Part shown: one piece after another, positions 12,764 through 59,578 of the stretch
Position numbering within the stretch: the first letter of the stretch is position 1
Layout of the letters: every line of letters starts with the position of its first letter
From: Ptychodera flava
Lineage: Eukaryota
Direction: 5' to 3'
Length of the DNA: 64,000 nt
Assembly: GCF_041260155.1 (NCBI RefSeq)
Contig: NC_091947.1
Location: 31,834,780-31,898,779, forward strand
The notes under the pieces: model-generated
What the model was told of the DNA's origin: nothing
The model's input: only the letters and a program-made list of their open reading frames with translations
Database searches by the model: none
Made by a program: the position numbers and the translations under genes

Positions 12764-12947
12764 GGGACTGGTCAGTTTCTTCGGCCTGGGGGGGGGGGCG
12801 GTGGATTATTTTTTGCCGACGTCAAAAAGTGGATGACCCCCCTATTCCAAATTTGAAAACAGGGTGACCCCCCCCCCCCCTATTCCAAATTTCTAAAACA
12901 GGGTGACCCCCCCCCCCGGCGCGACAAAGGTAAAACAAAAGATGGAC

Positions 12948-13037
<90 letters not shown>

Positions 13038-14197
13038 TTTACATTTTACATATATTATATTTTAAATAGTCATTCTATGTTTTAGTGAAATTGTTGACAT
13101 GTCAGTTGTAAGATAGGAATTTCAAAGTGTCAATCTTAAAGTTTAAATACAGTACATTTTGAATGAGCTGTATTTTGAATGAGCTGTGAATGTATTTCAC
13201 ACTTTCTCTGCTTAACCAGATGTCCTGAACTGTTGTACAGAAATGGATGTCAATCATTAATATCAAAGAGGAAAAAGCAGTGAATCAAAAACTTTGATGG
13301 GTGTTAAGACTTGCCAACCATCCAATTAAATCTACTGAGGAGCCATAGAGAGCTTTTTTAGCCAAATCTGATGTGTACAGTGTCTGAGAGGACCTTTTCT
13401 TGTGTAACATTGAAACCATAAAAGCACAGCTAATAATGACAAAAACTGCCTTTTTTAACTGTTATTTTGTTCATAAAAAGCATCTTCCTACAGAAAACCT
13501 ATGAAACAAAGGAAAATAATTGCATCAATGAGAAGGAAAGATATCTTGTCATTTTTCTATCTCTAAAATAAGTCACTGTATCAAATATATATTGTGAAAT
13601 ATTTGTGCATGTTGCTTTCTCATACTGAATTCTCACAGAGAGAACAGAAAAGTATCAGGAATTTGTCATCCTTTTCATATGAAATGCAGATTTCATAATG
13701 GTACACTTTCACTTAGCAAAGATCAAGATATCTCTGAAAGTATGGCGCCCGAAGGGGGCGCCAAAAATATGAAACATCCTGATATCTCTGATATATATGC
13801 CTTGTATATTAAAGTCATGCACCTGAAGGGCATGCTGAAAGATGTATGATATATTAAAGTAATGAGCTTGAAGAGCACGCTGAAAAATATTGAACATACA
13901 GATATCTCTGATGTATGTATGCTTGATATGTTAAAGTTGGGCGTGCTGAAAAATATGACTGATTATTAAAGTTACGCGCCCGAAGGGCGCGCCGAAAAAT
14001 ACAACTGAATGATGATTTTGTGGCTGACACTAGCATTTTAGGCAATGATGAGCCTGTGTCAAAATTCAAAAACACACTGACCCCCCCCCCTATTGGGCAT
14101 TTCAAAAACATGGTGACCCCCCTATCACCAAAGTCAAAAACAGGGTGACCCCCCCATGAATCCACCGCCCCCCAGGCTGAAGAAACTGACCAGTCCC
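12764..14197. mobile_element. PIF/Harbinger-like non-autonomous element (MITE) with ~43-bp TIRs and a TTA target-site duplication
   Basis: The 5' end is GGGACTGGTCAGTTTCTTCGGCCTGGGGGGGGGGCGGTGGATT and the 3' end AATCCACCGCCCCCCAGGCTGAAGAAACTGACCAGTCCC, a perfect inverse. TTA flanks it at 12761-12763 and 14198-14200. Internally it has an (AT)n tract at 12957-13032, subterminal CAGGGTGACCCCCC repeats and a tandem hairpin array. There is no ORF. A ~97% identical copy lies at 58166-59578. Confidence 0.85.
13709..13995. repeat. Tandem ~60-bp units inside the MITE, each with a GC-rich stem-loop closing a GAAG loop
   Basis: The hairpins are GGCGCCC-GAAG-GGGGCGCC, GCATGCACCT-GAAG-GGCATGC and CGCGCCC-GAAG-GGCGCG. 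The same array is present in the copy at 59105-59385. Confidence 0.6.
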
Positions 14198-14479
14198 TTA
14201 TTTCTGTCTGCACTCAAAACTCAAAATGTCGGATATGAACCTGAAAAATCGATGCAGTTTTGTCAAACTTTGGCGAAATTTCAGCCTATAGACAAATTTC
14301 ATCTAGGTAAGGTAAATTTACTGAAATTTGATCGACAAATAATCCTGAGCTTGAACGTGACAGCTCGCCTTCTCCGGGAAGTCAAGTATCCAGCTGCCCA
14401 TACACAGTTGCCCATATGGCCAGGTTTATGAGATGTTTTTCAAGCGACGGCGGCAGACCGTACGGGGCTCTGGATGTGA

Positions 14480-15390
14480 ACCTACCGCCGGTGTAGCTGT
14501 AATAACTGTTGCGTTGTTTTTAGTACCCACGGACGAAGTCCTGGGGGAGTTTATAGGTTTGGTCATGTCAGTCCGTCCGTCCGTCCGTTCACGCAGATAT
14601 CTCAGACATGCCCTGGTCAATTTCTTTCAAACTTTGCACAAGAATAGTACCCAACCCCATACAGATGCACGTCGATTTGTTTCACAATGTGATCGAATTT
14701 GGCCGTGTTAGAGGACTTTTTAGTTTACACCTCCATAGACTCCCATGTATAAGGCAGTTCTCCATAGACTCCCATGTATAAGGCCAAGAAAATAAAAATT
14801 TAGTTTCTCATCGTATTCATATTGCCTATTAAAAGGATGCAGTGACACAGTTTTTTGTCCCAACGGATAAAGTCCAGGGGCTTATAGATTGGGTCATATC
14901 CGTCCGTGAGTCCATCAGTGAGTCCATCGGTTCACGCAGATATCTCAGACATTTTGACAAAATATCATGTGACCTTGGTGACCTTTGACCTCAAATATAC
15001 ATTATTGTCCATAACTCAGTAACCACAAGTGCTAAACCTTACATATTTGGTATGATGGGACACCTTATGACGCCACATATTGTACGTCATTAATTATGCG
15101 CATATCTAATTTTGAGCGAGCCAATAGAGCTAGAGGTCTGATTTTTGGTATATAGGGATAAGTTAACAATATAATTTGTTTGACAAAACGTCACGTGACC
15201 TCAATGACCTTTGACCTCAAATAATATATATTTGTCCACAACTCAGTAACCACAAGTGCTACACTCTTCCTATTTGGTATGATAGGACACCTTATGACAC
15301 CACATATTGTACCTCATTAATTATGCGCATATCTAATTCTGAGCAAGCCAATAGAGCTGGATGTCCGATTTTTGGTATATAGGGATAACT
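14480..15390. repeat. Tandem duplication or minisatellite block
   Basis: 14958-15168 is about 90% identical to 15178-15385. A related, degraded unit lies at 14490-14700 and 14868-14950, where ...TCACGCAGATATCTCAGACAT is shared. The 24-mer ACTCCCATGTATAAGGC occurs twice at 14737-14790. Confidence 0.7.
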
Positions 15391-17439: not shown

Positions 17440-18880
17440 CGCAACATATCACCCCAAGAGGCTGCGAGTCAAAATTTGGCAACAATTTTCGTGAAGTTAG
17501 TTCCTCCATCGAGAGTTAATCTGCAACTGCGCCTGCATCACTTCATGACCATATATGGTGATGTTTTATGGCTGGACTGATCACTGGCGACCTATAACAT
17601 TCCTGTGCAAACAAACCTAGCATGATTCAGACACACCTCTACACGTGGATAGCAAAGGGACCTTCAGGGAGCACACCATAAGATATCCTTGGGGTGGTCA
17701 TTGTGTGGATATGCGAATTTCACGTTCATTGATTTGAGATATTTTTTTCAGAGCATGGATACCTTTTCCATCGGAAATCAAAATCATTTTTCTTTTGCAA
17801 TCATAAGCTGAAAATTGATAATTCACATATCCTCTCCTGATATGAAGTTGATGAAGTCTGCTAACATTTCCACATTTCGACCAACCGTCTCAAGATGTTA
17901 TGAATCAGTCGCAGCATTTCAATTAGCCTTCCTAATGTTTGATAACTTTAAGTCACCAAACTTTGTAGAACTCGTTCTCAGTTTAAGGTTCTTTGAGTTA
18001 ATACTGTACCTGCTGTATAGTTTAGGTCCTTAAAATGGCCTGATTAGGGGCAAATGTTTTTGAAAATCCTTAATTTGTTTACAAATAACATTACGTTCGA
18101 GCTATTTTCAAAATTGTGAATAATTGTTGACCATTTGCCAGGTCAGCTCCGTATATATTTATTCAGAATAAATGACCAAGGAGAAAAGAGTATTAAAAGA
18201 ATATCGGCCTCAATGAAATGTGAAAAGTTCTGGAGTGATTTTCTAAGTACTTTGCCGATAAAATCTTCAAGAAACAGAAACAAATGATAAATCACTTCTG
18301 TTTAGCCAAGCTCCAGTCTACATTCAACTCTTGATAAATTCAATAAATCTGGCCGTGTATTGCACTCCGAATCCAGAAATCAGCTGTGCGTAACGCAGTA
18401 TAGACTGAAAACACATGGAGAAAGGGCTTCTCGTCTGTGACTCCACAGTTTTGCTGTACAACTTAATGCTTGTCGAATGTCACATCCTTACCATGTGACA
18501 TTCGACAAGCATCCACTGTAAACAGCTCCAAGCATAAATTAAAGATTCATTTTGTTTACCAAGGCATATAATGTACATTGAACACGATTGGAATGGATTT
18601 GGGAGAATAGGATACACATGTAGTAGTTGGTAGTTGTGTTGGTTTAATCAGCAAATTCAAGCTCATCTACTGTTCTTTTTTGCAACTTTCAGCTATAGGG
18701 CACCGAACACTTTTGATATTGAATTTGAACAATTGAAAGATCCTATTTTCCCAAATTAGTTCCAATCGTGTATTGACCCGACCTGGCCCCTGCGACTAAC
18801 ATTGCCTATTGATTTGGTCGCTTTATAAATATTCTTGATTGACTGTCAACAAATATCAACGACATTGACGATACTTAAAT
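17440..18880. repeat. Dispersed repeat family D; also at 44580-45960, with fragments at 8900-9150 and 49500-49880
   Basis: The copies are collinear and about 90-95% identical. The family contains a perfect 17-bp-arm palindrome CTTGTCGAATGTCACAT-CCTTACC-ATGTGACATTCGACAAG at 18468-18512 (and at 45557-45600). Confidence 0.7.
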
Positions 18881-20239
18881 CTTCCCAGAAGGAGGTTTTG
18901 TCTCCTTTTATTATGATGTCCAAACATGTGGTTTTGAAGTGCTACATGGACTTCTTTACTATCATATCTAGTGTTTCGCACAAATGTACAACGTACATAA
19001 AATTTTTATGAGGGCCGAGTTGTGTCTATTAATAGTTTAGGGATGTACATATCCGAAAAGGATTTGACCTCAGTGCCCTTGACTAGAATACAATGACATG
19101 ATTATGAATAGAGAGAACGTATTTGATATTTGACCAACTTCCGTGCCCATTTCAAGCAACACATTTCGAGAACTCCTTTAAGCATATTCAGGTCTTAAAC
19201 TTGTCAAGGCCGTAGCACATCTCCTGACTCCTCTGGGAGGCATTATGGGAAACATGAAAAGAGCAATGAAGGTTAACGGTAGAAAACAAAGTCGTGCACC
19301 AGCGTCCCCAATAGACCCAACATGAACACATTGCCTCGTCATGAGCGGGGGACACACTTCATGAAATCTATGATATGCAGGTCGGTCTCTCTGTATACAG
19401 TAGTAGAACAACACGCCAACGCCATATTTAGACTTCTTATAGCCAATAAATCTACTTCCTTATTTTGTGAAGGTGTGTTTTTTCGTCGAATGACACGGCA
19501 GCCGTACAAGAAGTCATTTTTGTCATACAGCTCAATGTACGACTTAGGCCTATTTTGTCGAATTAAAAAACAGATCAAGATATGACGCTTAGCCCACACT
19601 TTCTGTTGTTTCTTTTATTTCTAATTCATCTTGATAGATTTGATGGAGATAGTTATGATCATTCTCTTTGCTCGTAAATTAAGTTCCTTCACCACTCTAC
19701 AGCATTAGAGGGTAAAAGTTCGAGTTTCGTCACAAAAACGAAATGGTACGAGATTAAAGGTCATGCACAATGGACAAAGAGTTGAAAATGCAGTCAGACC
19801 ATATATGGCATAGACATACTAGTACACCTCAATCGTCGGAGGGGACACATACCGACAGCAATGTATGCGTGAATGAGTACAGGGGACATGACCTGCAATG
19901 ACACGAATACTAAAACCAAACAATAAACAGTTGTCCTTTATTCATGTAGAGCTGTGCGTCTACGTCTAACATCCATGTCGCTATGGGTTTTTGGTGAGGC
20001 TGTTTTAAGAAATTTAAAGGTGTAGAAGCATAAAATGCTTTCCCTTTAAAATGGTGTGCGTAGGATGTGATTTGTTTGGATCATAAAGGCTTACAAATTT
20101 ACGTGAGACTGTGAGAAAACTCTTCATTACGCCTACACAGGTATGATACCGTAACTGAACTGCAAGTCATCTTCATTTGGGAGCCATTCACACTGAAAGC
20201 CGTCAAATTAACTGCCCCGTATACATTGGTCTGCTTGGC

Positions 20240-20583
20240 TTCCAGCCACTATAGGGAAAAAGTGCGTGACTAGAGCGAGAAACTGACGCTTTCTCGCAAT
20301 CGGTGAGAATCTGTTCTTATCCTCACCGCTGTCGGTGAGAAATTTTAATCTCCACTGGAGATTGGTGAGAATGCTCCTTGGCAAGAATCAAGTGTGAGAA
20401 CAAATTCTCATCGGTGAGAATGATTATTCTCACTAAGTACAGCGAGAATTGAAATTCACTGGCGAGAATCATAAAGACTCGCCGTTCAGAGTCTTTATGA
20501 TTCTCGCCAATGAACGGGGCGAGCCTTAATGATTCTCGCCAGTGAATTTCAATTCTCGCTGTACTTAGTGTGAATTTTGTGAG
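20240..20583. mobile_element. 345-bp insertion, present only in copy I, carrying nested palindromes and five GGTGAGAAT motifs
   Basis: It is absent at the paralogous site 53575, which reads ...CTTGTTTCAGCTTTGACTCAAG.... There is a perfect 20-bp inverted repeat GGCGAGAATCATAAAGACTC-GCCGTTC-GAGTCTTTATGATTCTCGCC at 20452-20500, nested inside a ~45-bp inverted repeat at 20436-20480 and 20525-20570. Confidence 0.6.
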
Positions 20584-23500
20584 CTTTGACTCAATAACGC
20601 TGGCGCACTTAACGCAGAACGGTGCGGTATGTTGTTAGGTCGGAGTATCCGGCATGATACCCCTTTTAACTTACTTCACGATTTCGCTCATCCTCTATAC
20701 GTTATCCACATATTGTTGTGTCAGGAAGAGCAATAAACATTCAATATGTATTGCTTGACGACGTGTTTATCGAGACCTTAATGAATTTCAATTCTTTTTT
20801 CTCAGTGTGCATTGTAGTGTAGAATGTTTTACAGACGCAGCGAGATGCATATCCCGTTGGCGCATCCCTGTTTCCTTTTGACAAATAAACAAAATCGAAA
20901 CACTCGACATTTCAATTTTTATGGTGTTTCTTCACGGCTGAAAGAGACATCGACCACGTATCATATATGTTGGTCGATAGGAAAACTTTATTGTCAATCG
21001 TGGAAACAAAAATGACAAAAAACTACATGAAGGCACAAGGGCTTCATTAACTGACGGGTCAAAAGAGTACTTTAGTTTCTTGTTACACTTTAATTTTGTG
21101 ACATCTAGATCGACATCAATGGTTCATGATGATACTTCCAATCAATAGCATTATTTTGAAGTCAAACCGTTGCACAGTATTTTCACATCCTTCAGCGCAC
21201 CGTCATTTTTTTCAAGTGCCTTTTCTCCCCAGCCCCCTTCGGACCTGTTTTGTGACCGCAGCCTCATGTGAATGAATCTGTTGTCTTCAGCGTACACCTT
21301 ATAATAACGATACTTGAGATTCGTTCAGATCCGTTTTGCATTCGATATGGTCACAACGAAACATCTCATTTTATACGAAGAAAATGTCTAACAAGATTAT
21401 GTATGGGCGAGATCTGTATCGATCGAAGTTTGCATACTGAAGAAAAGCACAGAGAGCGTCCTCAACGGATGGCCTCAATAAGTCATGATTGGACTGTATT
21501 GCCAGACAGCGCTGGCTTTGAGTTTTCAACGAAGAATGACATTTCATCAATGACAACCAGGACAGTGCCTCCGTGACCATCACCGCGCGATATAACCTTT
21601 TGAGACAGTATAGGTCATAACTCATGGCAACCATTGTGAAGTAATTACAAGTTTCTTTACAGACTCGCATGGGAAAGAGCATATCTTCACGACCATATAG
21701 AGTAGCTTTCATCATCTTAACGACGAGGTATGACCTTTGTATGACGTGACTGACTTCAGTAAATTACTTGAAGGTGGTGAGAGGAAAAGCATTGGTGTTT
21801 AATATAAGGCTTTGCTCTTGTTAAGGTCATATGTATGACGATGGCATTAATTTTGTCACTTTTCAGCATGCTAGACGCAACTGGTATATCAAGTTACTTC
21901 ATGAATTTGTCTAACATTGTTGTGAAACCCTATTTTGGAGTTAAGTACATTCGCGATTAAAAAGTATATACATGTCATCATGTGAAGTAGGTATAGTATT
22001 ACACAAGATGGAAGTTTCGTATTTTAATTTCTTAATACCCATGACTCAGGTAGTTCTGCGCATTTTATGAGTCACAGACTTAAACTCGTTTAGTTGAAAA
22101 CAAGAATTCCAATTCAGAAAATAGTTTTAAGGTGTTCTCTATTTCGGTGAAATAATGAAGGGGCAAAGGGCTTCTTTGATATTGGAGCACTTTTTTGATG
22201 AAAGCTTGATGTACATGTCATTCTCATTGAAATCACCTACTCCTGAACCAAGATAACCTCCCTCAATATGTCTTAATCAGTGACACCGTATTCACCATCA
22301 ATCTCTCCACTGCTTGTATAGCTCTTCAGTGAATAGCAAAGACAACGTGTTCGGCATGTTCGCCTGGCCGAAGCCCGGCAGCCACATAGCCACTCGGTTA
22401 TGCTAGCCTACAATAGTACAGTAATATCATATACTGTGATTCTTTATTGAATAGACAAGTCGTATAGACATCGTACATATTAAATATGATTATTATCCCA
22501 GAAATGCGCCAAGCACCTGTGCTCTCTCTAATGCCATCTGAATAGCAAAGACATCCATTGGTTTCAATTTCGTCACCTTTTCGCATTTCAGTATGTAAAA
22601 GTTTCGCGGTATTTTTCTATTTCTCAGAATTTCAACTCAAGGGAGGTATGTTAATATGGCATCAAATCAATTCCAGCAATCGTTATCAGTCAAGTCAAGT
22701 AAATCACCAGGTCCAAGAAACAATACAAAATACACACTGACAAAATCAATAGTGCAATCTCGAACCACTAGTGGTGGTACCAGGTGTCTGGAATGGGTAA
22801 GCGTACCCATCAAGTCACAAGTAATTGTCAGGTAATCAGATAGTTGCCAAATTACTGTTGTGAGTCAAAGCCAGGAATACCGTCTCTCATCATCTGGGTA
22901 ACAGATTTGTCATATTTGAACATCTCCATATCTACCATAAAACTTCTGAAATGATCTAGCCAACCTACTTCGTGAAAATCTGTATCACTAGGTTTAAGAC
23001 GAAAAAGTTGTGTCTTACTTGAAAGTCTTCATATGAATTACAAGCTCTACAGTATCTCAAGAGTTGTGAAATGTATACACCATAAGCTTGACCGGACGTC
23101 CGATGAAATATAACTGGTTAAGTAGGGAAAGTTGTTGATTTCAAAATTAAAATCGTCCCTTTTGTCATACTTAAGCCTATTTTGTCGATTTTTTAAAAAA
23201 AAAGATCAAGATATGACGCTGAGCCCACACTTTCTGTTGTTTCTTTTATTTCTAATTCATCTTGATAGATAATTATGATCTTTCTCTTTGCTCGGAAAGT
23301 AAGTTCTTTCACCACTCCACAGCATTAGAGGATAAAACTTCGAGTTTTGTTACGAATACGAAATGGTACGACAGTAAAAGATCATAATGGACAAAGAGTT
23401 GAAAATACAGTCAGACCATATATGGCATAGACATACTAGTACACCTCAATCGTCGGAGGGGACTCATACCGACAGCAATGTATGCTTGAATGAGTACAGG

Positions 23501-25869
23501 GGACATGACCAGGAATAACACGAATACTAAAACCAAACAATGAACAGTTCTCCTTTGTTCTTATACAGCTGTATGTCTACGTCTAACATCCATGTCACTA
23601 GGGACTTTTGTGAGGCTGTTTTATGAAATTTAAAGGTGTGGTTGCATTAAAATGCTCTCCCTTTAAAATGGTGTGTGTAGGATTTTATTTGTGTGGATCA
23701 TAAAGGCTTACAAATTTACGTGAGACTGTGAGAAAACTTTTCATTACGCCTACACAGGTATGATACCGTGCCTGAACTGCAAGTCACTTTATTTTGGGAG
23801 CCATTCACACTGGAAGCCGTCAAATTATCAGCTTCAAGCGTATACATTGGTGTGCTTGGCTTCCAGCTTTGACTCAAGAACGCTGGCACTCTTAACGCAG
23901 AACGGCGCGGTATGTTGTTAGATCGGAGTATCCGGGATAATACCCCTTTTACCTTACTTCACGATTTCGCTCATCCTTTACACGCTATACACACATTGTC
24001 GTGTCAGTAAGAGCAATAAACCTTCAATATGTATTGCTTGACGACGTGTTTATCGAGACCTTTATGAATTTCAATTCTGTTTTCTCAGTATACATTGGAG
24101 TATATAATGATTTACAGACCCTGCGAGATGTATATTCCGTTGGCACATCCCTGTTTCCTTACCACGACTAGGGCTACTAAAACACAATCTAAACACTTGA
24201 CATTTCATTAACATTCACATGTATGAAAGGTCAATTTTACAATTTATACGGCGTTTCTACACGGCTTAAAGAGACATCGATCACATTTCATATAAGTTGG
24301 TCGCCATAAACACATTCTTATCAATCGTGAAACAAAAATGACAAAAACTACAGCATAATTTATAGCCGGCCACTTCATCCCCTCAAGTATTTCGTGTGAC
24401 TGATATGACATCAATATCGTTGAAGCACAACGCTATACTTTTGATTACCCCTTTCAAGCATACCGATGGAATGGTACCTAAGTCAACCAATACCTCACCA
24501 CTGAACTGAATTGCCATGTAAAGTACTAGTACTTGTTGCCGTCATCCTATTCTATCTAAATCTCGTGTACTAAATTCTTCCACACAGAATTGGTCTTTGG
24601 GAAAACGCTTCGTTGTCATTGCCGTGGAAATATACATGGGGTTTGCGTAGCCAGCTAATTCTTAACCATCAATCTGCACTGTGTTTTATCAAGATTTTAC
24701 AAAACTTACCAACATCATTTGCCATGTTTCAGGTAACATATAAAATAACGATTTAAAAGCAAGCGAAAAGTCCAATCTTGCCCAATTTAATATATGAGGA
24801 AAGATGCAAGCAGTGTTTTCCGTCTTTTTGTGTTACAATAGTGAGACTTACAACTAAAAGAAATATCCCAGTTGTATCGACACAAGTTCAAGCAGCGCCC
24901 TCAGACACAATCCCCCCACCGATCGCCCTTTCAGCAACCCTTAAACTTTGACTGTCCATATCAAATGAGGTCGATGTAATTTGGCATATCAGGAAGGTCA
25001 GATAGATACACAGAAGGTTTTGCGTTCGGTGACTTCTCTCGGTTGTGTCTGACAAAGGAAGCCCATGCAGAATTCTTTCCAGAAATGAATATGGCCGCAC
25101 CTGGAAAATATAAACGATTTAAATCGCACTGAACTTCAAATATGATACAAAATAAGACAAAAAGGATATTTCACACATGGTAAAATACTAAGCAGAACCA
25201 TGACAAGCAGACAAAGAACCATCCTGACGGGTATTTGGCAAATTCGTTCAATAGACTTTGGTGTAACAATGCAAGAAAGTGAAAATATCTTGAGACTTTT
25301 AAGAGAGAGTTGGTATACAAGACAAATTGTATTGATAAATGGATTCTTACATGTTGTCATCATGCTCAATGTCATGATAAGCTGAACAAAATAATTCTTT
25401 CGTTAAAAGCCGCTGCTAAAAATGCTGATTTAGCAGTGTCTTGGTAATTTGAACAGCTAATGACTGGTGTCTTTTGAAAGATCTTAAGACACTGTTGGAG
25501 GAACATTTAAGAATATGATATGAAGAAATGGTAAGAATTCAATCTAATTAAACTCCCGCTGCCTCTTTGAAAGATGTACTATTTCATAAAGTGCTCAGCG
25601 TGCTGGGTAAAATTGTTCAGATATATATTCATACTATGTTTCCCAGGATGTCAGGAATTCCGTCATCGACCTACATTAGTTTACAAACGAAAGTTATAAT
25701 CAACTATGTCTTCAACACGATATGGCATAAATAGACATTGATGACACCGTATATCGTACTGCATCACTGAACAGTCAAGAAACGTAAGATAGACCCCCAC
25801 CTTTGGGCTTATATCAGGATTACAAAATCCCTTAGAGATATTCCCTTCTTTTACACTGGAGCCCACTAA

Positions 25870-26022
25870 TTACTTACCTTCACATATCTCTTGTTCCACT
25901 AGTGACAGAAAGTAGTCGTCACTGAAGACAGATGGCTTAGGGGATAGCTTATTTGCCATTGCGATGACGTCAACTGAGGAATAAACTTTTGGTATCCTTG
26001 GTGACAGATACTTGACTATTCC
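25870..26022 (-). CDS. POFUT-like gene copy I, terminal coding exon reading GIVKYLSPRIPKVYSSVDVIAMANKLSPKPSVFSDDYFLSLVEQEICEGK followed by a stop
   Basis: The acceptor is tctgtctcag|GGAATAGTC at 26022 and the stop TAA is at 25870-25872. Copy II differs by an in-frame 3-bp indel, so the reading frame is conserved. Confidence 0.55.
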   Translation of the reverse strand, partial: GIVKYLSPRIPKVYSSVDVIAMANKLSPKPSVFSDDYFLSLVEQEICEGK

Positions 26023-26149: not shown

Positions 26150-26163
26150 AAATCAAAATTCGA

Positions 26164-26222
<59 letters not shown>

Positions 26223-47500: not shown

Positions 47501-49880
47501 GTTATTAAAACGTATTTTGGAGTTAAGTACATTCAGCATTAAAAAGTATGTCATCATGTAAAGTATGGTATAGTATTACACAAGATGGAAGTTTCGTATT
47601 ATTTATTTCTTAATACACATCACTCAGGTAGTTCTGCGCATTTTAGAAGTCACAGACTTAAACTCGTTTAGTTGAAAACAAGAATTCCAATTCCGAAAAT
47701 AGTTTAAAGGTGTTTACTATTTTGATGAAATAATGAAGGGGCAAATGTCTACTTTGATATTGGAGCATTTAACCATTCTAATGAAAGCTTGATGTACAAG
47801 TCAGTCTCATTAAAATCTGAACCAAGATCACCGACCACAATATGTCTTAATCAGTGCCACCGTATTCACCATCAATCGCTCCACTGCTTGTATCGCCCTT
47901 CAGTGAACCATCTGAATAGGAAAGACAACGTGTTCGGCATGTTCGCCTGGCCCAAGCCCGGCATCCGCATAGCCACTCGGTTATGCTTGCCGACATGTAC
48001 AATAAGATCATGTACCGCGATTCTTTATTGAATAGACAAGTCGTATAGTGGTATATGCCGAGCGCCTGTGCTCTCTCTAGTGAACCATCTAATTAGCAAA
48101 GACATCCATTGGTTTCAATTTCGTCACCTTTTGGCATTTCAGATACAAGCAGTATGTAAAATTGTTGTGGAATTTTTCTATTTCTCGGAATTTCAACCCA
48201 GTGAAGGTATATTAATACGGCATCAAATCAATTCCAGCAATCGTTATCATTCAAGGCAAGTAAATCACCAGGTCCAAGAAACAATACAAAATAAACACTG
48301 ACAAAGTCAATAGTGCAATCTCGAACCACTAGTTGTGGTACCAGGTGTCCAAAATGGGTAAGCAAGATTGAACTAAAGTGGTAATTCAGCTAGCTGCCAA
48401 ATTATTGCTGTGAGTTAAGCCAGGATTATTGTCTCTTATCATCTGAGTAACAGATGTGACATATTTGGATTTAAGATCTCCATATCTACCACGGAAGTTC
48501 TTATAAATGAGCTACCCAACCCACTCTGTTAAAATCTCCGTCTCATTATCTTCAATACTTAAAAGTTGTGTCTGACTTGAAAGTCTTCATATGATCACAA
48601 GCTCTACAGTATCTCAGGAGTTGTAAAATGTATACACCATAAGCTAGACCATACGACCGACTAAATATTACTGATTAAGTAAGGAAAGTTATTGCTTTCA
48701 AAATTAAAATCGTCCTGTTTGTCATACAGCTCAGCGTGCGACTTAGGCCTATTTTGTCGAATTAAAAAAACAGATCAAGATATGACGCTGAGCCCACACT
48801 TTCTGTTGTTTCTTTTATTTCTAATTCATCTTGATAGATGTGATGGAGGTAGTTATGATCATTCTCGTTGCTCAGAAAGCAAGTTCCTTCATCACTCCAT
48901 AGCATTAGAGGGTAAAAGTTCGAGTTTCGTTACGAAAACGAAAGGTTACGAGATTAAAGGTCATGCACAATGGACAAAGAGTCGAAAATGCAGTCAGACC
49001 ATATATGGCATAGACATACACCTCAATCGTCGGAGGGGACACATACCAACAGCAATGTATGCGTGAATGAGTACAGGGGACATGACCAGCAATAACACGA
49101 ATACCGAAACCAAATATTGAACAGTTGTCCTTTGTTCTTATACAGCTGTACGTCTACGTCTAACATCCATGTCGCTAGGGACTTTTGTGAGGCTGTTTTA
49201 TAAACATTTAAAGGTGTGGTTGCATTAAAATGCTTTCCCTTTAAAATGGTGTGTGTAGGATTTTATTTGTGTGGATCATAAAGTCTTACAAATTTACGTG
49301 AAACTGTGAGAAAACTCTTCATTACACCTACACAGGTATGATACCGTAACTGAACTGCAAGTCATCTTCATTTGGGAGCCATTCACACTGAAAGCCGTCA
49401 AATTAACTGTCCCGTATACATTGGTCTGCTTGGCTTCCAGCTTTGACTCAAGAACGCTGACACACTTAACGCAGAACGGCGCGGTATGTTGTTAGGTCGG
49501 AGTATCCATGTGACACTCGACAAGCATCCACTGTGAACAGCTCCAAGCATAAATTAAAGATTCAGTTTGTTTACCAAGGCATACAATGTACATTGAACAC
49601 GATTGGAATAGATTTGGGAGAATAGGATACACATGTAGTAGTGGTGCTGGTTTAATCAGCAAATTCAAGCTCATCTACTGTTCTTTTTTTGCAACTTTCA
49701 GCTATAGGGCACCGAACACTTTTGATATTGAAATTTAACAATTGAAAGATCCTATTTTCCCAAATTAGTTCCAATCGTGTATTGACTCAACCTGACCCCT
49801 GAGACTAACATTGCGTATTGGTTTTGTCGCTTTATAAATATTTTTGATTGACTGTCAACAAATATCAACGACATTAGTGA
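44580..49880. repeat. Mosaic of repeat families D (44580-45960), E (45950-46560 and 48700-49500), F-related segments (46700-48300) and a D tail (49500-49880)
   Basis: Blocks are collinear with 17440-22740. ORFs in these blocks are not conserved between copies. Confidence 0.6.
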
Positions 49881-49886
49881 TACTTA

Positions 49887-52200
49887 CAGACGTCGTGACT
49901 GCGCCCCGGACAGCCAATTTGCAATATACCCAGCGATATCATGTGCCACACACACAATTAGCTCATTAATTAGCGAAACATTTGGTCAGATGTGAAGTGT
50001 GTCTCTCTTGCTGTTATCAGCGCGACCATTTCCTGTGTCAAAAGTTGTGAAATGTAAACACATCTCCTGGTACAAATCATTTCTTTCAGGGGGTGGCTGC
50101 TCACGGTAATAACTTCGAAGTGGTAAGAATAACACAAAATTTTACATAAAATACAACACTGCTAATAAAGTATTTCTTTTCTACAAATACCGTTTCTTTT
50201 TCATTTTTTATAAGACCAAAGTATTGTAAGATTGAAATGCTATACGCGTTTCGTTAGCTCCCCAAACCTCCTGCATTATGGTTTCTTCCAAACGAGAAAT
50301 CCACTAAGCGGTCGTCAGAATTCGTGGCGGTAAAAGTTGAGTTGAAAACTTTCGCCTTTCTGTTCGGCATCATCCGATAGCCTTCGCGCACTTTATAGAT
50401 TATTAGAAATCACTAGTTGCAGTAGTTGGAAGCCCGCAAGTCAAGGGCAAATAAAGGAGAACGTTTTCTAACTTACACGCTATCTAAATGTAAATCGAAC
50501 TAAATTTTATCGAAGTAATCAACAAAACCAATGTTACTTCACATATCGACTACTCAGAACGAAAACTAATCGATCAATTTCTTATTTAGGCATTCCCGTC
50601 TACACGAGTACACGCGACAACAATGACCACATGAACTTCAACTTGTAAATCAATGAAACGGCCCGGAATCCACACAGCCTAAAAAAAATGCGTGACATCA
50701 GCGGGTTATGTCGGAAACGGCTTCAATTATAGCAGTTTCAGTAAACTGACGAACTGCAAAGACATCATGTTTACGGAGATACCCTTTGACAAATCGAAAG
50801 CACATTTCACAAGTGTTAAACTCGGGGCTGTACGGAGGCTGAAACACTAAAGTAACTTCACGCTCGCCCAACAGTTCCCGTAGGTATGGCTCTGCGATCC
50901 GACCATGGTGGAATCCGCAATTATCCATGACAACTGTGTCGCCCGGAGATAAAATCTGATCATCTTGTTCGTCAACGACTTCCAGCGCCTCCTCAAAAAA
51001 GTAGATCATTTCAAGGCCGTTCGAAGGGCCATCGAGAATATTAAAGTAATCGACGCCCCGTGCACAATGAAGGAGGTGTAGCGTGTAGTTCACGTCCGAC
51101 GTGTATCGCTGGACTTCAAATGCGGGTTGACCTCTCAGACTGTGTCCATACTGTCTGTTGCCCGATGTCTTTTTGACGCCCGCTTCATCAAAAAAATGCA
51201 CACTGAGGGGATCAAGTTGAGAAATGTCATCGATGTACTGCATTATTTTTCTGATGTTCTTTCAGTCAACTGTTCAGCCGGAACACTCTGTATTTTCTTG
51301 TAGGAATAATTTAAATCTCTGCCGAGGATGTCGTAAATCGTCCTGTGTGCAGGGAGGTTTTCTTCTGTGCAGACATTTTGATTGAGCAGTTCAGATCGAA
51401 TTTCGGAAACAGTCATTGAAGGCTTACCGAATTTCAAATATTCCACGAAATTCACGACTTCGGGTACGCACTTTGATCGTAGGGCTCCGCGATTCTTCGA
51501 AGGATGAACGAATCCAGTCTTAAGAAAGTGAGTTACTATGTCATGCACGGTTGTCTTCGGCATACATAGTTGATGCGCGATCTCTCGAACACTTGTCCCT
51601 TTGCACTCGTGTTTGATCGACAAGTCAATGATCTTCGACCGTTTGTCGATGTCGGTTATTTTTTGACATATTTGAAAGTTCCTGGCAATGAGAGACGACC
51701 GACCGGTGAAAGTTTTGACTGCACTGAACTTGGCGATGTCTGTGTAAGCGGTAATTTTACGTCACGACTGTGTTTACGTTTAACCGGAAAGGGCACTCAC
51801 AATTTCAATTTCGGGGTCTCACTGAGCAGAAACTTAGAAAATGGTGTAATTAATCACTCACTCTAGGCAACGACAATAAACGAAAATGATAACTTTCTTT
51901 TTAAAATATCACAGTGTCCCATACAACTTTACCGATACAAGACGTCAAAATATGGGATCAAATGTAACAGGTTTGATGACCATATTCTGGACCGCACCTG
52001 TACAGGAAATGGTTTGATCCAGACACGTTTATTTATAGTCTGGATTCATGGGGCGCTTAGTGCGTCGGCAACGTAAACTCATGCCTGCAATCAAAGGCCT
52101 ACAGCTACCGTTTAAAACGCTGAGCGATATCACTGTGTGGCCATCAACATTGCTGGGTATATTGCAAATTGGCTGTCCGGGGGCGCAGTCACGGACTCTG
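49887..52200 (-). mobile_element. Tc1-family (DD34E) transposon, complete copy 2 of 2314 bp, with TIRs of at least 50 bp and a TA target-site duplication
   Basis: The left terminus is CAGACGTCGTGACTGCGCCCCGGACAGCCAATTTGCAATATACCCAGC. The right terminus reverse-complemented is CAGAGTCCGTGACTGCGCCCCCGGACAGCCAATTTGCAATATACCCAGC. TA lies at 49885-49886 and 52201-52202. The intact empty site GATACTTAAATCTTCC is visible at 18869-18884 and 45939-45954. Confidence 0.9.
50698..51623 (-). pseudogene. Tc1-like transposase, about 310 aa, with a single 1-bp deletion near 51243
   Basis: The track ORFs 51243-51623 (HTH region ...TSVREIAHQLCMPKTTVHDIVTHFLKTGF...) and 50698-51243 (DDE region) are contiguous in copy 1. 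The motifs are FFDEAG, VVMDNCGFHH and PPYSPEFN. Confidence 0.85.
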
Positions 52201-53636
52201 TAAATCTTTCTAGAAGGAGGTTTTGTCTCCTTTATTATCAATGATGTCCAAACAGTGGTTTTGAAGTGCTACATGGACTTCTCTACTATCATATCTAGTG
52301 TTTCGCACAAATGTACAATGTACATAAATTTTTTATGAGGGCCGAGTTGTGTCTATTAATAGTTTAGGGATGTACATATCCGAAGAGGATTTGACCTCAG
52401 TGCCCTTGATTAGAATACAATGACCTCAGTGCGCTTGAATAGAATACAATGACATGATTATGAATAGAGAGAACGTATTTGATATTTGACCAACTTCCGT
52501 GCCCATTTCAAGCAACACATTTCGAGAACTCCTTTAAGCATATTCAGGTCTTAAACTTGTCAAGACCATACCATGTCTCCTGACTCCTCTGGGAGGCATT
52601 ATGGGAAACATGAAAAGAGCAATGAAGGTTAACGGTAGAAAACAAAGTCGTGCACAAGCGTCCCGAACAGACCCAACGTGAACACATTCCCTCGTCATGA
52701 GTGGGGGACACACTTCATGAAATCTATGATATGCAGGTCGGTCTCTCCGTATACAGTAGTAGAACAACACGCCAACGCCATGACACATTTAGACTTCTTA
52801 TTGCAAATAAATCTACTTCCTTATTTTGTGAAGGTGTGTTTTTTCGTCGAATGACACGGCAGCCGTACAAGAAGTCATTTTTGTCATACAGCTCAGTGTA
52901 CGACTTAGGCCTATTTAGTCGAATTAAAAAAATAGATCAAGATATGACGCTTAGCCCACACTTTCTGTTGTTTCTTTTATTTCTAATTCATCTGGATAGA
53001 TTTGATGGAGGTAGTTATGATCATTCTCTTTGCTCGTAAAGTAAGTTCCTTCACCACTCTACAGCATTAGAGGGTAAAAGTTCGAGTTTCGTCACAAAAA
53101 CGAAATGGTACGGGATTAAAGGTCATGCACAATGGACAAAGAGTCGAAAATGCAGTCAGACCATATATAGCATAGACATACTAGTACACCTCAACCGTCG
53201 GAGGGGACACATACCGACAGCAATGTATGCGTGAATGAGTAGAGGGGACCAGCAATAACACGAATACACTTGTCCTTTGTTCTTTTACAGCTGTGCGTCT
53301 ATGTCTAACAACCATGTCGCTAGGGGTTTTTGGTGAGACTGTTTTAAGAAATTTAAAGGTGCGGAAGCATTAAAATGCTTTCCCTTTAAAAGAGTCTGCG
53401 TAGGATGTGATTTGTGTGGACCATAAAGTCTTACAAATTTATGTGAAACTGTGAGAAAACTCTTCATTACGCCTACACAGGTATGATACGGTAACTGAAC
53501 TGCAAGTCATCTTCATTTGGGAGCCATTCACACTGAAAGCCGTCAAACTAACTCCCCGTATACATTGGTCTGCTTGTTTCAGCTTTGACTCAAGAACGCT
53601 GACACACTTAACGCAGAACGGTGCGGTATGTTGTTA

Positions 53637-55015
53637 GGGTGGACCATTTGATATCCTGGGGGGGGGGGGCTTGGAAGATTGGTGGAGAGCCATTATTTTT
53701 TTCCCACGTGCTTCACCATGAATTATTTTTTTTCTACAGGGCATATGCTGGCAACTTTTTTTTCACTTTCCTTCTTCGAGATATATTTTTTTTTTACCAA
53801 ATTTCGGTGCAATGTTTGTTTGCTTGGTTTTTCACGCCCAGTAACAAGATGCTGTTCTATCGCGCACAGACTATATTCAAGAAACTAAATGAAGATATGT
53901 AAATACATGTACATTTTTGATTCACTTCACAAAAACATATTTGTAAAATCATGTACATTTACGGCATTTACTTGTCAGTGTTGTCCTTACATTGAAAGTA
54001 GCCGGGTAATTTAAGAAAGTAGACGGGTGGACTGCGAGGGAGCGAAGCGACCGAGCGGCGAGTGAGCGTAGCGAACGAGGGGGGGGGGTAGAGCGCGAGA
54101 GGGGGTGTCTCCCCTCTCGCAAGGCGAAAAATGAAATTTTGGAGTGGAAATGGTGTTCTCTGGTGGCATCTGAGGTGACATTTAGCTGAGACTGAAACAG
54201 TACTTTTGTTGTGTGTCTTAGACGTGGCTCACATACAACAAAACAAATAAACATGATTTTGTTTTGTTTGTATTATTTATGACACACTTATGGTTTAATT
54301 GCAGTGAAGATGTAACATTTAATCTTAAATCACCCGCTGTCTGTTCATTTCATTGCCCATTTCCCATTCTTCATTACTACATAGTAGTTTCCCAAAACCA
54401 TCAAACTCATTCGCTTTTGTTAAGAAAAACATTGGTAAGATAATTCACTATAACTGTGTTCGCATTTACGAATAAAACATGCGTATATAGAAAACTCATA
54501 ACAATGAAAAAATGTGTAGAGAGTCGATCCAATGCGTAATAATATTACGCATTGGATTGAGTCTCTACGCATTTTTTCATTGTTATGAGTTTTCTATACG
54601 CAAACGATAATAGTAAAATGTTTGCAGGCTGTCTCTCTTCTTGTGGTATTTTGACAAAATCCATACATTCAGATTTACACATTTCTGGAAAACACTGGTG
54701 AGCAATTTCAATTTCAGCATACTTCCTCTAATCAGAAGGTCATGTATACTGTACAATTGTTCATATTCAGTTATTGTTCCTCAAGCTTGAAATGGTTTAT
54801 GCTTTATAAAACTCCAGAGCTACTGCTTGATTTTTTTATTGATGCTGCAGTGTGCATCGAACAATTGCCAAGATTTTTTTCCGAGTCGCAATGGTCCATA
54901 ATTGTTTTTCCATCAGCCACTTAAAGCCAGATTTTTTTTTTCAAGCAACTCCACCTGTCATCTTTTTTTTTCCCCAAATCTTCCAAGCCCCCCCAGGATA
55001 TCAAATGGTCCACCC
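53637..55015. mobile_element. PIF/Harbinger-like MITE of 1379 bp with 41-bp G-run TIRs and a TTA target-site duplication; present only in copy II
   Basis: The 5' end is GGGTGGACCATTTGATATCCTGGGGGGGGGGGCTTGGAAGATT and the 3' end AATCTTCCAAGCCCCCCCAGGATATCAAATGGTCCACCC. TTA lies at 53634-53636 and 55016-55018. The empty paralogous site at 20628-20640 reads GTTGTTAGGTCGG. Internally it has poly-T tracts, a GC-rich segment at 54000-54130 and a ~140-bp palindrome centred near 54545. Confidence 0.85.
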
Positions 55016-58000
55016 TTAGGTCGGAGTATCCGGCATTATACCCCTTTTAACTCACTTCACGATTTCGCTCATCCTTTACACGCTATACACATATTGTCGA
55101 GTCAGGAAGAGCAGTAAACTTTCAATAGGTATTGCTTGACGACGTGTTTATCGAGACCTTTATGAATTTCAATTCTGTTTTCTCAGTGTGCATTGTAGTG
55201 TAGAATGTTTTACAGACGCCGCGAGATGCATATCCCGTTGGTGCATCCCTGTTTCCGTTGGGCAAATAAACAAAATCGAAACACTCGATATTTCAATCTT
55301 TATGGTGTTTCTTCACGGCAGAAAGAGATATCAACCACGTATCATGTATGTTGGTCGACAGAAAAACTTTATTTTAAATCGTGGAATTAAAAATGACAAA
55401 AAACTACACGAAGGCACGAGGGCTTCATTAATTGACGGGTCAAAAGAGTACTTTAGTTTCTTGTTACACTTTAATTTTGTGACATCTATAGATCGACATC
55501 AATGGTCAATGATGATACTTCCAATCAATAGCTTTATTTTGAAGTCAAACCGTTGCACAGTATTTTCACATCCTCCAGCGCACCGTCATTTTTTTCAAGT
55601 GCCTTTTCTCCCAGCCCCCTTCAGACCTGTTTTGTGACCGCAGCCTCATGTGAATGAATCTGTTGTCTTTGGCGTATACCGTATGATAACGATACTTGAG
55701 ATTCGTTCAGATCCGTTTTGCATTCGATATGGTCACAACGAAACATCTCATTTTATACGAAGAAAATGTCTAACAAGATTATGTATGGGCGAGATCTGTA
55801 TCGATCGAAGTTTGCATACTGAAGAAAAGCACAGAGAGCGTCCTCAACGGATGGCCTCAATAAGTCATGATTGGACTGTATTGCCAGACAGCGCTGGCTT
55901 TGAGTTTTCAACGAAGAATGACATTTCATCAATGACAACCAGGACAGTGCCTCCGTGACCATCACATAAAGAAGAACCCATGCCCGCGCGATATAACCTT
56001 TTGAGACAGTATAGGTCATAACTCATGGCAACCATTGTGAAGTAATTACAAGTTTCTTTACAGACTCACATGGGAAAGAGCATATCTTCACGACCATATA
56101 GAGTAGCTTTCATCATCTGAACGACGAGGTATGACCTTTGTATGACGTGACTGACTTCAGTAAATTACTTGAAGGTGGTGAGAGGAAAAGCATTAGTGTT
56201 TAATATAAGGCTTTGCTCTTGTTAAGGTCATATGTATGACGATGGCATTAATTTTGTCACTTTTCAGCATGCTAGACGCAACTGGTATATCAAGTTACTT
56301 CATGAATTTGTCTAACATTGTTGTGAAACCGTATTTTGGAGTTAAGTACATTCGCGATTAAAAAGTATATACATGTCATCATGTGAAGTAGGTATAGTAT
56401 TACACAAGATGGAAGTTTCGTATTTTTAATTTCTTAATACCCATGACTCAGGTAGTTCTGCGCATTTTATGAGTCACAGACTCGTTGAAAACAAGAATTC
56501 CAATTCAGAAAATAGTTTTAAGGTGTTCTCTATTTCGATGAAATAATGAAGGGGCAAAGGGCTTCTTTGATATTGGAGCAGTTTTTTGATGAAAGCTTGA
56601 TGTACATGTCATTCTTATTGAAATCACTTCTCCTGAATCAAGATCACCTGCCACAATATGTCTTAATCAGTGCCACCGTATTCACCATCAATCGCTCCAC
56701 TGCTTGTATCGCTCTCTAGTGAATAGCAAAGATAACGTGTTCGGCATGTTCGCCTGGCCCAAGCCCGGCAGCCACATAGCCACTCGGTTATGCTAGCCTA
56801 CAATATTATGTGGCAGCCACATAGCCACTCGGTTATGCTAGCCTACAATAGTACAGTAATATCATGTACTGTGATTCTTTATTGAATAGACAAGTCGTAT
56901 AGACATCGTACATATTAAATATGATTATTATCCCAGAAATGCGCCAAGCGCCTGTGCTCTCTCTATTGCCATCTGAATAGCAAAGACATCCATTGGTTTC
57001 AATTTCGTCACCTTTTCTCATTTTAGTATGTAAAAGTTTCGCGGTATTTTTCTATTTCTCAGAATTTCAACTCAATGGAGGTATGTTAATATGGCATCAA
57101 ATCAATTCCAGCAATCGTTATCATTCAAGTCAAGTAAATCACCAGGTCCAAGAAACAATACAAAATACACACTGACAAAATCAATAGTGCAATCTCGAAC
57201 CACTAGTGGTGGTACCAGGTGTCTGGAATGGGTAAGCGTACCCATCAAGTCACAAGTAATTGTCAGGTAATTCAGATAGTTGCCAAATTACTGTTGTGAG
57301 TCAAAGCCAGGAATACCGTCTCTCATCATCTGGGTAACAGATTTGTCATATTTGAACATCTCCATATCTACCATAAAACTTCTGAATGATCTAGCCAGCC
57401 TACTTCGTGAAAATCTGTATCACTAGGTTTAAGACGAAAAAGCTGTGTCTTACTTGAAAGTCTTCATATGAATTACAAGCTCTACAGTATCTCAAGAGTT
57501 GTGAAATGTATACACCATAAGCTTGACCGGACGTCCGATGAAATATAACTGGTTAAGTAGGGAAAGTTGTTGATTTCAAAATTAAAATCGTCCCTTTTGT
57601 CATACAGCTTCGTGTGTAACTTAAGCCTATTTTGTCGATTTTTTTTAAAAAAAAGATCAAGATATGACGCTGAGCCAACACTTTCTGTTGTTTCTTTTAT
57701 TTCTAATTCATCTTGATAGATGTGATGGAGGTAATTATGATCTTTCTCTTTGCTCGGAAAGTAAGTTCTTTCACCACTCCACAGCATTAGAGGATAAAAC
57801 TTCGAGTTTTGTTACGAATACGAAATGGTACGACAGTAAAAGATCATAATGGACAAAGAGTTGAAAATACAGTCAGACCATATATGGCATAGACATACTA
57901 GTACACCTCAATCGTCGGAGGGGACACATACCGACAGCAATGTATGCGTGAATGAGTACAGGGGACATGACCAGGAATAACACGAATACTAAAACCAAAC

Positions 58001-58165
58001 AATGAACAGTTCTCCTTTGTTCTTATACAGCTGTATGTCTACGTCTAACATCCATGTCACTAGGGACTTTTGTGAGGCTGTTTTATGAAATTTAAAGGTG
58101 TGGTTGCATTAAAATGCTCTCCCTTTAAAATGGTGTGTGTAGGACTTTATTTGTGTGGATCATAA

Positions 58166-58341
58166 GGGACTGGTCAGTTTCTTCGGCCTGGGGGGGGGGG
58201 GCGGTGGATTATTTTTTGCCGACGTCAAAAGTGGCTGACCCCCCTATTCCAAATTTTGAAAACAGGGTGACCCCCCTATTCCAAATTTCTAAAACAGGGT
58301 GACCCCCCCCGGGCGCGACAAAGGTAAAACAAAAGATGGAC

Positions 58342-58417
<76 letters not shown>

Positions 58418-59578
58418 TTTACATTTTACATATATTTATATTTTAAATAGTCATTCTATGTTTTAGTGAAATTGTTGCATGTCAGTTGTAAGATAGGAAT
58501 TTCAAAGTGTCATCTTAAAGTTTAAATACAGTACATTTTGAATGAGCTGTATTTGAATGAGCTGTGAATGTATTTCACACTTTCTCTGCTTAACCAGATG
58601 TCCTGAACTGTTGTACAGAAATGGATGTCAATCATTAATATCAAAGAGGAAAAGCAGTGAATCAAAAACTTTGATGGGTGTTAAGACTTGCCAACCATCC
58701 AATTAAATCTACTGAGGAGCCATAGAGAGCTTTTTTAGCCAAATCTGATGTGTAAGTGTCTGAGAGGACCTTTTCTTGTGTAACATTGAAACCATAAAAG
58801 CACAGCTAATAATGACAAAAACTGCCTTTTTTAACTGTTATTTTGTTCATAAAAAAGCATCTTTCTACAGAAAACCTATGAAACAAAGGAAAATAATTGC
58901 ATCAATGAGAAGGAAAGATATCTTGTCATTTTTCTATCTCTAAAATAAGTCACTGTATCAAATACATATTGTGAAATATTTGTGCATGTTGCTTTCTCAT
59001 ACTGAATTCTCACAGAGAGAACAGAAAAGTATCAGGAATTTGTCATCCTTTTCATATGAAATGCAGATTTCATAATGGTACACTTTCACTTAGCAAACAT
59101 CAAGATATCTCTGAAAGTATGGCGCCCGAAGGGGGCGCCAAAAAATATGAAACATCCTGATATCTCTGATATATATGCCTTGTATATTAAAGTCATGCAC
59201 CTGAAGGGCATGCTGAAAGATGTATGATATATTAAAGTAATGAGCTTGAAGAGCACGCTGAAAAATATTGAACATACAGATATCTCTGATGTATGTGTGC
59301 TTGATATGTTAAAGTTGGGCGTGCTGAAAAATATGACTGATTATTAAAGTTACGCGCCCGAAGGGCGCGCCGAAAAGTACAACTGAATGATGAATTTTGT
59401 GGCTGACACTAGCATTTTAGGCAATGATGAGCCTGTGTCAAAATTCAAAAACACACTGACCCCCCCTATTGGGCATTTCAAAAACATGGTGACCCCCCCT
59501 ATCACCAAAGTCAAAAACAGGGTGACCCCCCCCCATGAATCCACCGGCCCCCCCAGGCTGAAGAAACTGACCAGTCCC
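58166..59578. mobile_element. PIF/Harbinger-like MITE, second copy of the 12764-14197 element, with a TAA target-site duplication; present only in copy II
   Basis: Its TIRs are identical to those of the element at 12764. TAA lies at 58163-58165 and 59579-59581. The empty paralogous site at 20084-20095 reads TGGATCATAAAGGCTTAC. Confidence 0.85.

Follow-up and report, generated by a model that had tools for sequence, protein, structure and literature searches.

A 64-kb stretch of DNA from the acorn worm (hemichordate) Ptychodera flava, in the following called the window, contains several families of cut-and-paste transposons that encode no protein and that duplicate a TTA or TAA target. Seven elements and fragments of such elements were found, occupying about 18% of the 64 kb. 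They appear to be non-autonomous DNA transposons, most likely of the PIF/Harbinger superfamily (Tourist-like), and two of the complete elements inserted after a local duplication.

Elements Found in the Window

A first-pass annotation had listed four elements, starting at 12764, 32620, 53637, and 58166. All four were recovered at these coordinates, and on re-inspection each is flanked by a perfect 3-bp target site duplication (TSD) of TTA or TAA. Three further members had not been listed: one at about 40277-40988, one with an end at 42657, and one with a start at 9445. The whole set is as follows.

12764-14197, + strand: E1, non-autonomous element of family A, 1434 bp; TSD TTA at 12761-12763 and 14198-14200
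58166-59578, + strand: E4, copy of family A, 1413 bp; TSD TAA at 58163-58165 and 59579-59581
32620-37670, + strand: E2, family B, 5051 bp; TSD TAA on both flanks
53637-55015, + strand: E3, family C, 1379 bp; TSD TTA at 53634-53636 and 55016-55018
40277-40988, + strand: E7, older copy of family C, about 712 bp, newly listed; right end GGGGGGACCATTTAATGTCC (reverse complement), then TAA
40992-42657, + strand: E5, family D, without left terminal inverted repeat (TIR), newly listed; right end closing with GGCCATAATAACTGAACGCTCCC, then TAA
9445-9600, + strand: E6, isolated left end of family D, newly listed; reads GGGAGCGTTCAGTTATTATGGCC, with TGA as flank

The elements had at first been taken as one family. 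Judged by TIR sequence there are at least four, with one end architecture common to all. The term MITE fits them in part, as they are non-coding and have TIRs and a TSD, but MITEs are usually smaller than about 800 bp; at 1.4-5 kb the elements are mostly too large, and only E7 falls within this size. The description as ORF-less agrees with six-frame scans of the interiors of E1, E2, and E3, which returned no Pfam domain, and E2 contains no ORF longer than 79 amino acids.

Family A has the terminal consensus GGGACTGGTCAGTTTCTTC. In E1 the left TTA is followed by GGGACTGGTCAG, and CTGACCAGTCCC precedes the TTA on the right. Its TIR measures about 44 nt at the left end and about 39 nt at the right, with a G-run of 11 versus 6, and there are three subterminal TGACCCCCC repeats per end as well as an internal (TA)n microsatellite. 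E4 has the same termini, flanked by TAA on both sides, and its host site is copy II of the duplication described below. The two were originally called near-identical copies with different TSDs, and this is borne out by the alignment: the identity is 96.6% when gaps are counted, while substitutions amount to 0.50% (7 substitutions, 20 gap openings), and the TSD is TTA in one and TAA in the other. When metagenomes were scanned with the 19-nt family A terminus, six matches were obtained, all bacterial-looking; since they agree over the 19-mer only, they are ascribed to chance.

E2, the sole member of family B, begins with GGGACTGGACGTAAATTAGC, which is also the terminal consensus of the family, and ends with GCTAATTTACGTCCCGTACC, with TAA on either side. 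Its TIR of about 39 nt contains several mismatches, the degenerate right terminus reading GGTACGGGACG compared with GGGACTGGACG on the left. The repeat TGACCCTCCC is found three times at the left end and twice at the right, with a spacing of about 33 bp. E2 is a putative single element, a reading based on this degenerate TIR and on the TSD match, which has a 50% chance of occurring given a TWA at both flanks.

In family C, E3 runs from TTA into GGGTGGACCATTTGATATCC, the terminal consensus, and from GGATATCAAATGGTCCACCC into TTA. Its TIR reads GGGTGGACCATTTGATATCCTG(7-12)CTTGGAAGATT, and a 56-bp hairpin is present inside the element at 54486-54598. In the older copy, E7, the left TIR is degenerate and the left flank no longer matches.

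Family D has the terminal consensus GGGAGCGTTCAGTTATTATGGCC. Three repeats lie near the right end of E5, TGACCCCCC twice (42538, 42571) and TGACCTCCC once (42605); another TGACCCCCC is located at 41012. A repeat search showed that the interior of E5 contains around five diverged copies of an approximately 183-bp tandem repeat at 41309-42220. Tandem Repeats Finder returned nothing for E5, because these repeats are too diverged. E6 carries degenerate GTGAACCCCC and GATAACCCCC motifs and adjoins a truncated reverse-transcriptase fragment.

A Shared End Architecture

The TIRs of the four complete elements are about 39-44 bp long, begin with GGG, and contain an internal G-run, much as the first-pass annotation had it. 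The pattern common to at least four families covers about 40 bp and consists of GGG, 17-22 variable bases, a G-homopolymer, and (C)GG(T/A)GGATT. This inner module is conserved across families, and the termini read 5'-GGG...CCC-3'. The two ends are not identical; in families A and C the left-end G-homopolymer exceeds that of the right end by 5 nt.

Inward of the TIR, a C-rich motif of 9-10 bp, either TGACCCCCC or TGACCCTCCC, is repeated in two or three copies, while family C has T-runs. At either end these subterminal repeats are all in + orientation, with a spacing of about 33 bp, and are hence direct rather than inverted. Their number is far above expectation, with nine occurrences of GTGACCCCCC against 0.05 expected and five of TGACCCTCCC against 0.03. 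Subterminal repeats of the GTGACCCCCC type had been ascribed to all four elements; E3 has phased T-runs in their place.

Each of the four complete elements, albeit a small sample, has identical 3-bp flanks (TTA, TAA, TTA, and TAA), in agreement with the TWA duplication of PIF/Harbinger. TAA likewise follows the right ends of E5 (42657) and E7 (40988).

Insertion Relative to a Local Duplication

The window contains a local duplication, earlier described as having two copies; there are at least three, copy I at 17516-28127, copy III at 44576-49507, and copy II from about 49506 to 64000. Unique sequence separates the copies, and an internal sub-repeat of about 1 kb is present five times. This makes it possible to compare each insertion with its uninterrupted paralogues. 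The collinear empty sites in copy I are:

20632-20634, no strand assigned: empty site for E3, a single TTA within GTTGTTAGGTCGG
23701-23703, no strand assigned: empty site for E4, a single TAA

Four empty paralogous sites were found for each element, at about 20632, 23918, 59795, and 49496 for E3, and at 23701, 20084, 49279, and about 53424 for E4. All eight hold a single TWA. The empty sites proposed earlier, at 20628-20640 and 20084, are exact, but 20084 is a sub-repeat paralogue, and the site collinear with E4 is 23701. With four precise empty paralogues for each, the earlier conclusion stands: E3 and E4 inserted after the local duplication. Further, E1 and E4 differ by 0.5% in substitutions, less than the 1.1-7.4% that separates the duplicated flanks, which dates E4 after the duplication. 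Describing the elements as still mobile captures this recent activity but overstates the case for the present day.

Two other explanations of the empty sites were considered. Copies I and II might be uncollapsed haplotypes placed in tandem, their differences being allelic presence and absence. The chromosome-level genome of P. flava is a Canu assembly of long reads (PMC11175523), and the many single-base indels between near-identical repeats (20 gap openings against 7 substitutions for E1/E4) suggest assembly noise. The presence of at least three copies, the five-fold sub-repeat, the divergence of 1-7%, and the unique intervening sequence, on the other hand, fit a real tandem duplication, which makes the haplotype explanation improbable. 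Even if it were correct, the compared sequences had split before the insertions took place. It is still harder to believe that the elements were already in place before the duplication and then disappeared precisely from the other copies, leaving the empty sites as footprints: excision of the PIF/Harbinger element mPing is usually precise and leaves one copy of the TSD (PMC2836001), so that an excised site would be indistinguishable from an empty one, but four independent precise excisions would be required for each of two elements, and the low divergence between E1 and E4 relative to the flanks places E4 after the duplication.

A Tc1/mariner insertion that likewise postdates the duplication is found within the same 64 kb, and a Tc1-like transposase in the window matches a P. 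flava protein with 98% identity. A search for host genes gave no hits. Since both the Tc1/mariner and the TWA insertions are later than the duplication, several cut-and-paste families have been recently active in P. flava.

Probable Superfamily and Proposed Mechanism

TIRs together with 3-bp TTA or TAA duplications are features of PIF/Harbinger elements (PMC2213677; bioRxiv 10.64898/2026.05.26.728016), and in Medicago tandem repeats and (TA)n tracts have been described inside them (PMC2213677). No DDE_Tnp_4 or Myb/MADF coding sequence was found in the window by the six-frame scans of the E1, E2, and E3 interiors, and a tblastn search of the window with an approximate human HARBI1 query gave no match. 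As the scanned interiors contain no domains and the window no HARBI1-like match, the elements are considered non-autonomous.

A transposase from elsewhere in the genome would be expected to act in trans and to cut at the GGG/CCC termini. The element would then go into a TWA trinucleotide, which would be duplicated in the process. In Harbinger3_DR, a subterminal motif of 9 bp is the binding site of a Myb-like protein (PMC9710019). The phased 9-10-bp motifs of P. flava fit this precedent and are candidate binding sites; by analogy, a second, Myb/MADF-like protein might bind them and recruit the transposase. The direct orientation of the repeats at both ends is not marked by anything as typical of Harbinger, and counts against the assignment.

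Assignment to Zator is unlikely, though it is the strongest of the alternatives. The elements would then be non-autonomous Zator elements with 3-bp TAA/TTA TSDs, moved by a single transposase related to TP36/IS630. The TSDs and the TIRs of about 40 bp are compatible with the description of Zator. In amphioxus, also a deuterostome invertebrate, Zator-1 has 33-bp TIRs, both TAA and TTA TSDs, and seemingly recent mobility (PMC12905397), and since the TSDs are shared they do not discriminate Harbinger from Zator. The phased subterminal arrays, by contrast, would suit the accessory-protein model taken over from Harbinger. Zator was reportedly noted by Bao et al. in 2009 to be rare relative to PIF/Harbinger, which also speaks against it.

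Somewhat less likely again, the four families could constitute a hemichordate lineage that inserts into TWA and has structurally polar ends, with a transposase outside canonical PIF/Harbinger (Zator-like or undescribed) and direct arrays that would tell left from right. Under such a reading, the same-strand subterminal arrays lie about three helical turns apart.

Other superfamilies are very improbable. Animal AcademX and EnSpm elements may have 3-bp TSDs (PMC7165386), and formally the flanks could be read as TA plus one base of the element. Academ termini, however, are 5'-pyrimidine...purine-3' (PMC7165386) as opposed to 5'-GGG...CCC-3' here, and the ends GGGACT, GGGTGG, and GGGAGC do not display the CACTA terminus of CACTA/EnSpm. 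A TTAA duplication as in piggyBac is contradicted by the empty sites GTTGTTAGGTC and GGATCATAAAGG, neither of which contains TTAA. The TA duplication of Tc1/mariner (Stowaway) was rejected because E1 (TTA) and E4 (TAA), which are 99.5% identical in substitutions, would get different ends, while a 3-bp duplication gives them identical ones.

In the literature searched, P. flava repeats are described at class level only. For several DNA-transposon families with recent activity, the present set supplies curated element boundaries together with the TSDs and the structure of the ends. The comparison of paralogues serves as an internal relative date, with 0.5% between elements set against 1.1-7.4% between flanks, and the phased TGACCCCCC arrays are a specific sequence to which an accessory DNA-binding protein might bind. 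Otherwise this is an ordinary case of recent transposon activity, which leaves the knowledge of transposon biology unchanged.

Comparison with Known Transposons

Coral CMITEs are piggyBac-related and were set aside as not relevant. Zator-1 of Branchiostoma, compared by description only, resembles the P. flava elements in its 33-bp TIRs, its 3-bp TAA/TTA TSDs, and its apparent recent mobility. It differs in being a single-protein system with a TP36/IS630-related transposase, and in its amphioxus copies, which have been described as palindromes.

The Tourist-like PIF/Harbinger elements, such as mPing of rice and Harbinger-1M_cIno of Caenorhabditis inopinata, share several features with the P. 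flava elements: they are non-coding, carry TIRs that begin with G, duplicate a 3-bp TTA/TAA target, have single-TWA empty sites, occur in several size classes, and display recent activity. The P. flava TIRs are longer (about 40 bp) and contain a G-homopolymer, and unlike the Tourist-like elements those of P. flava carry phased same-strand TGACCCCCC arrays at both ends. Their sizes are 0.7-5 kb, compared with less than 0.5 kb, and no autonomous partner is linked to them.

The zebrafish pair Harbinger3N_DR and Harbinger3_DR, which has been reconstructed, is similar in that a non-autonomous element is mobilised in trans. The sequences are unrelated to those of P. flava and the host belongs to another phylum. 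In Harbinger3_DR the Myb-like ORF1 protein attaches to the 9-bp subterminal motif and recruits the transposase, and TGACCCCCC may be the P. flava counterpart of this motif.

Element Boundaries, Termini and Families

Direct sequence reading placed all four elements of the first-pass annotation (E1-E4) at the coordinates it had proposed, and re-inspection showed each to be flanked by 3-bp direct repeats. Three further elements or fragments (E5-E7) were recognized.

E1, 12764-14197: TTA, GGGACTGGTCAG...CTGACCAGTCCC, TTA; family A
E2, 32620-37670: TAA, GGGACTGGACGTAAATTAGC...GCTAATTTACGTCCCGTACC, TAA; family B
E3, 53637-55015: TTA, GGGTGGACCATTTGATATCC...GGATATCAAATGGTCCACCC, TTA; family C
E4, 58166-59578: TAA, termini as in E1, TAA; family A
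E5, right end at 42657 with subterminal repeats; family D
E6, isolated left end at 9445; family D
E7, ~40277-40988: older 712-bp copy absent from the first-pass annotation; family C

Together they occupy about 18% of the window, which is animal DNA of ~38% GC. The outermost bases of the E2 right terminus contain two mismatches. Reading the flanks as a TA duplication with an added element base was rejected in favor of the 3-bp target-site duplication (TSD), since it would add a 3' T to E1 (TTA) and a 5' A to E4 (TAA), giving unlike ends to near-identical copies. PiggyBac is excluded because the empty sites lack TTAA. The longest ORF of E2 is at most 79 aa, and no Pfam match was obtained when the interiors of E1, E2, and E3 were translated in all six frames. 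The label MITE thus suits the elements as non-coding, but not in size, most copies being 1.4-5 kb and larger than usual MITEs.

Alignment of twelve termini revealed at least four families, where a single one had been proposed. What they have in common is architecture rather than sequence: GGG is followed by 17-22 variable bases, a G-run, and (C)GG(T/A)GGATT. The subterminal motifs are far more frequent than chance, with nine occurrences of GTGACCCCCC (0.05 expected) and five of TGACCCTCCC (0.03 expected). In every element carrying them, the TGACCCCCC/TGACCCTCCC repeats are direct repeats lying on the + strand at both ends, spaced 31-39 bp apart and mostly ~33 bp, about three helical turns. Such repeats had been ascribed to all four elements; E1, E2, and E4 do carry them, but E3, like E7, has phased T-runs without GTGACCCCCC at the equivalent positions.

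The left terminal inverted repeat (TIR) of families A and C has a G-homopolymer 5 nt longer than that of the right TIR: 12789-12799 (11) vs. 14167-14172 (6) in E1, 58191-58202 (12) vs. 59546-59552 (7) in E4, and 53659-53670 (12) vs. 54987-54993 (7) in E3. This could reflect a functional asymmetry or homopolymer error of the long-read assembly. A long (TA)n tract is found in E1 (~12950-13035) and E4 (~58350-58412), while the family D interior (41309-42220) is built from a ~183-bp tandem repeat in about five diverged copies with 60-79% identity.

Local Duplication and Timing of Insertion

Self-BLAST of the window showed that the segmental duplication, described at first as two copies, is more complex.

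Copy I, 17516-28127
Copy III, 44576-49507
Copy II, ~49506 to the window end

A sub-repeat of ~1 kb, two per copy and five in total, means that the site collinear with the E4 insertion is 23701-23703 and not 20084, as had been suggested; the latter is an exact empty site, but in a sub-repeat paralogue. Both E3 and E4 have four exact empty paralogues. Those of E4 (23701-23703, 20084, and two further) read ...GGATCATAAAG(G/T)CTTAC..., with GGACCA replacing GGATCA at 53421, and those of E3 read ...GTTGTTAG(G/A)TCGG....

E1 and E4, which have different TSDs (TTA and TAA), differ by seven substitutions in 1402 aligned bases (0.50%), while six flanking segments of copies I and II diverge by 1.1-7.4%. 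The insertion of E3 and E4 after the duplication, as first proposed, is thus supported twice over, by empty paralogous sites and by divergence. Precise excision of elements older than the duplication is mechanistically possible, and is known for elements of this kind (mPing; PMC2836001), but each element would then have been lost independently four times, and this reading conflicts with the divergence data.

The differences between E1 and E4 are mainly single-base indels (20 gap openings vs. seven substitutions); two Tc1-like copies show seven of each. Indel-rich differences between near-identical copies are typical of residual long-read assembly errors, and homopolymer lengths and ORF frameshifts in the window should therefore not be over-read.

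Other Repeats and ORFs

49887-52200: 2.3-kb Tc1/mariner element; partial second copy at 1-1809
~20247-20579: ~333-bp insertion
~10276-10570 (+): truncated non-LTR reverse-transcriptase fragment (RVT_1, E = 2.6e-11), directly adjoining E6 at 9445
43140-43825: unit of ~686 bp bearing long inverted arms
27816-28172 and 63569-63985 (-): paralogous ORFs (MEEFQLRCNYNLE...AVHWRSKLDEM) inside the duplicated segment

The Tc1/mariner element at 49887-52200 encodes a paired-box HTH and DDE_3 transposase, frameshifted in that copy. Its TIRs begin CAGACGTCGTGACTGCGCC. It lies within copy II between duplicated TA dinucleotides, and the empty site GATACTTAAATCTTCC is kept in copies I (18876) and III (45945). 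Substitutions between it and the partial second copy amount to 0.39%, indicating a second family active after the duplication. A Tc1/mariner-type ORF of the window shares 98% identity with a Ptychodera flava protein, which makes this acorn worm almost certainly the source of the DNA.

The ~333-bp insertion, found only in the first sub-repeat of copy I and missing from the four paralogues, begins CACTATAGGG, has AGC on either side, and holds a 58-bp hairpin (20426-20483/20518-20575); it may be a short CACTA-type element. The 43140-43825 unit, whose arms pair 43140-43186 with 43779-43825 (96%) and 43175-43308 with 43656-43789 (95%), is possibly another foldback-type MITE. Its ends are TTAAGGTAGC...GCTACCTTAA, and partial relatives lie at 1807-2307. 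The paralogous ORFs gave no Pfam match and no homolog in a search of 5.8 billion proteins; they could be non-coding or represent an exon of a lineage-specific gene that is not annotated.

Superfamily Assignment and Comparison with Known Systems

A 3-bp TTA/TAA duplication together with G-initial TIRs is the textbook PIF/Harbinger signature (PMC2213677; C. inopinata preprint, bioRxiv 10.64898/2026.05.26.728016), and the elements probably belong to this superfamily, as the first-pass annotation held. That assignment fits the TSDs and TIRs but is not proven: no DDE_Tnp_4 or Myb/MADF sequence was found within the 64-kb window, and amphioxus elements with 33-bp TIRs and TAA/TTA duplications have been classed as Zator-1 (PMC12905397), so the TSD cannot separate the two. 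Zator is nevertheless an unlikely origin, PIF/Harbinger being preferred on prior abundance and the accessory-protein analogy. The remaining weight is split over minor rivals, two of which bear not on the superfamily but on how the empty sites are read. Academ and CACTA fit worse, as Academ termini are 5'-pyrimidine...purine-3' (PMC7165386) while those here are 5'-GGG...CCC-3', and CACTA termini do not match the element ends either. Matches to the family A terminus in a metagenome scan were all due to chance.

Only structure, TSDs, non-coding nature, and relative timing are established. A trans-acting DDE transposase would cut at the GGG/CCC ends, likely contacting the conserved inner TIR module, and insert the element at TWA (TTA/TAA) with a 3-nt stagger, while an accessory DNA-binding protein would load on the phased subterminal motifs.

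The P. flava genome paper annotated repeats by class only (PMC11175523), and no earlier description of these families was found in the literature. For a specialist in transposable elements this would be routine curation, with a neat internal control for dating. In Harbinger3_DR a 9-bp subterminal motif is bound by a Myb-like protein (PMC9710019), a precedent that, by analogy, points to a plausible function of the phased motif arrays.
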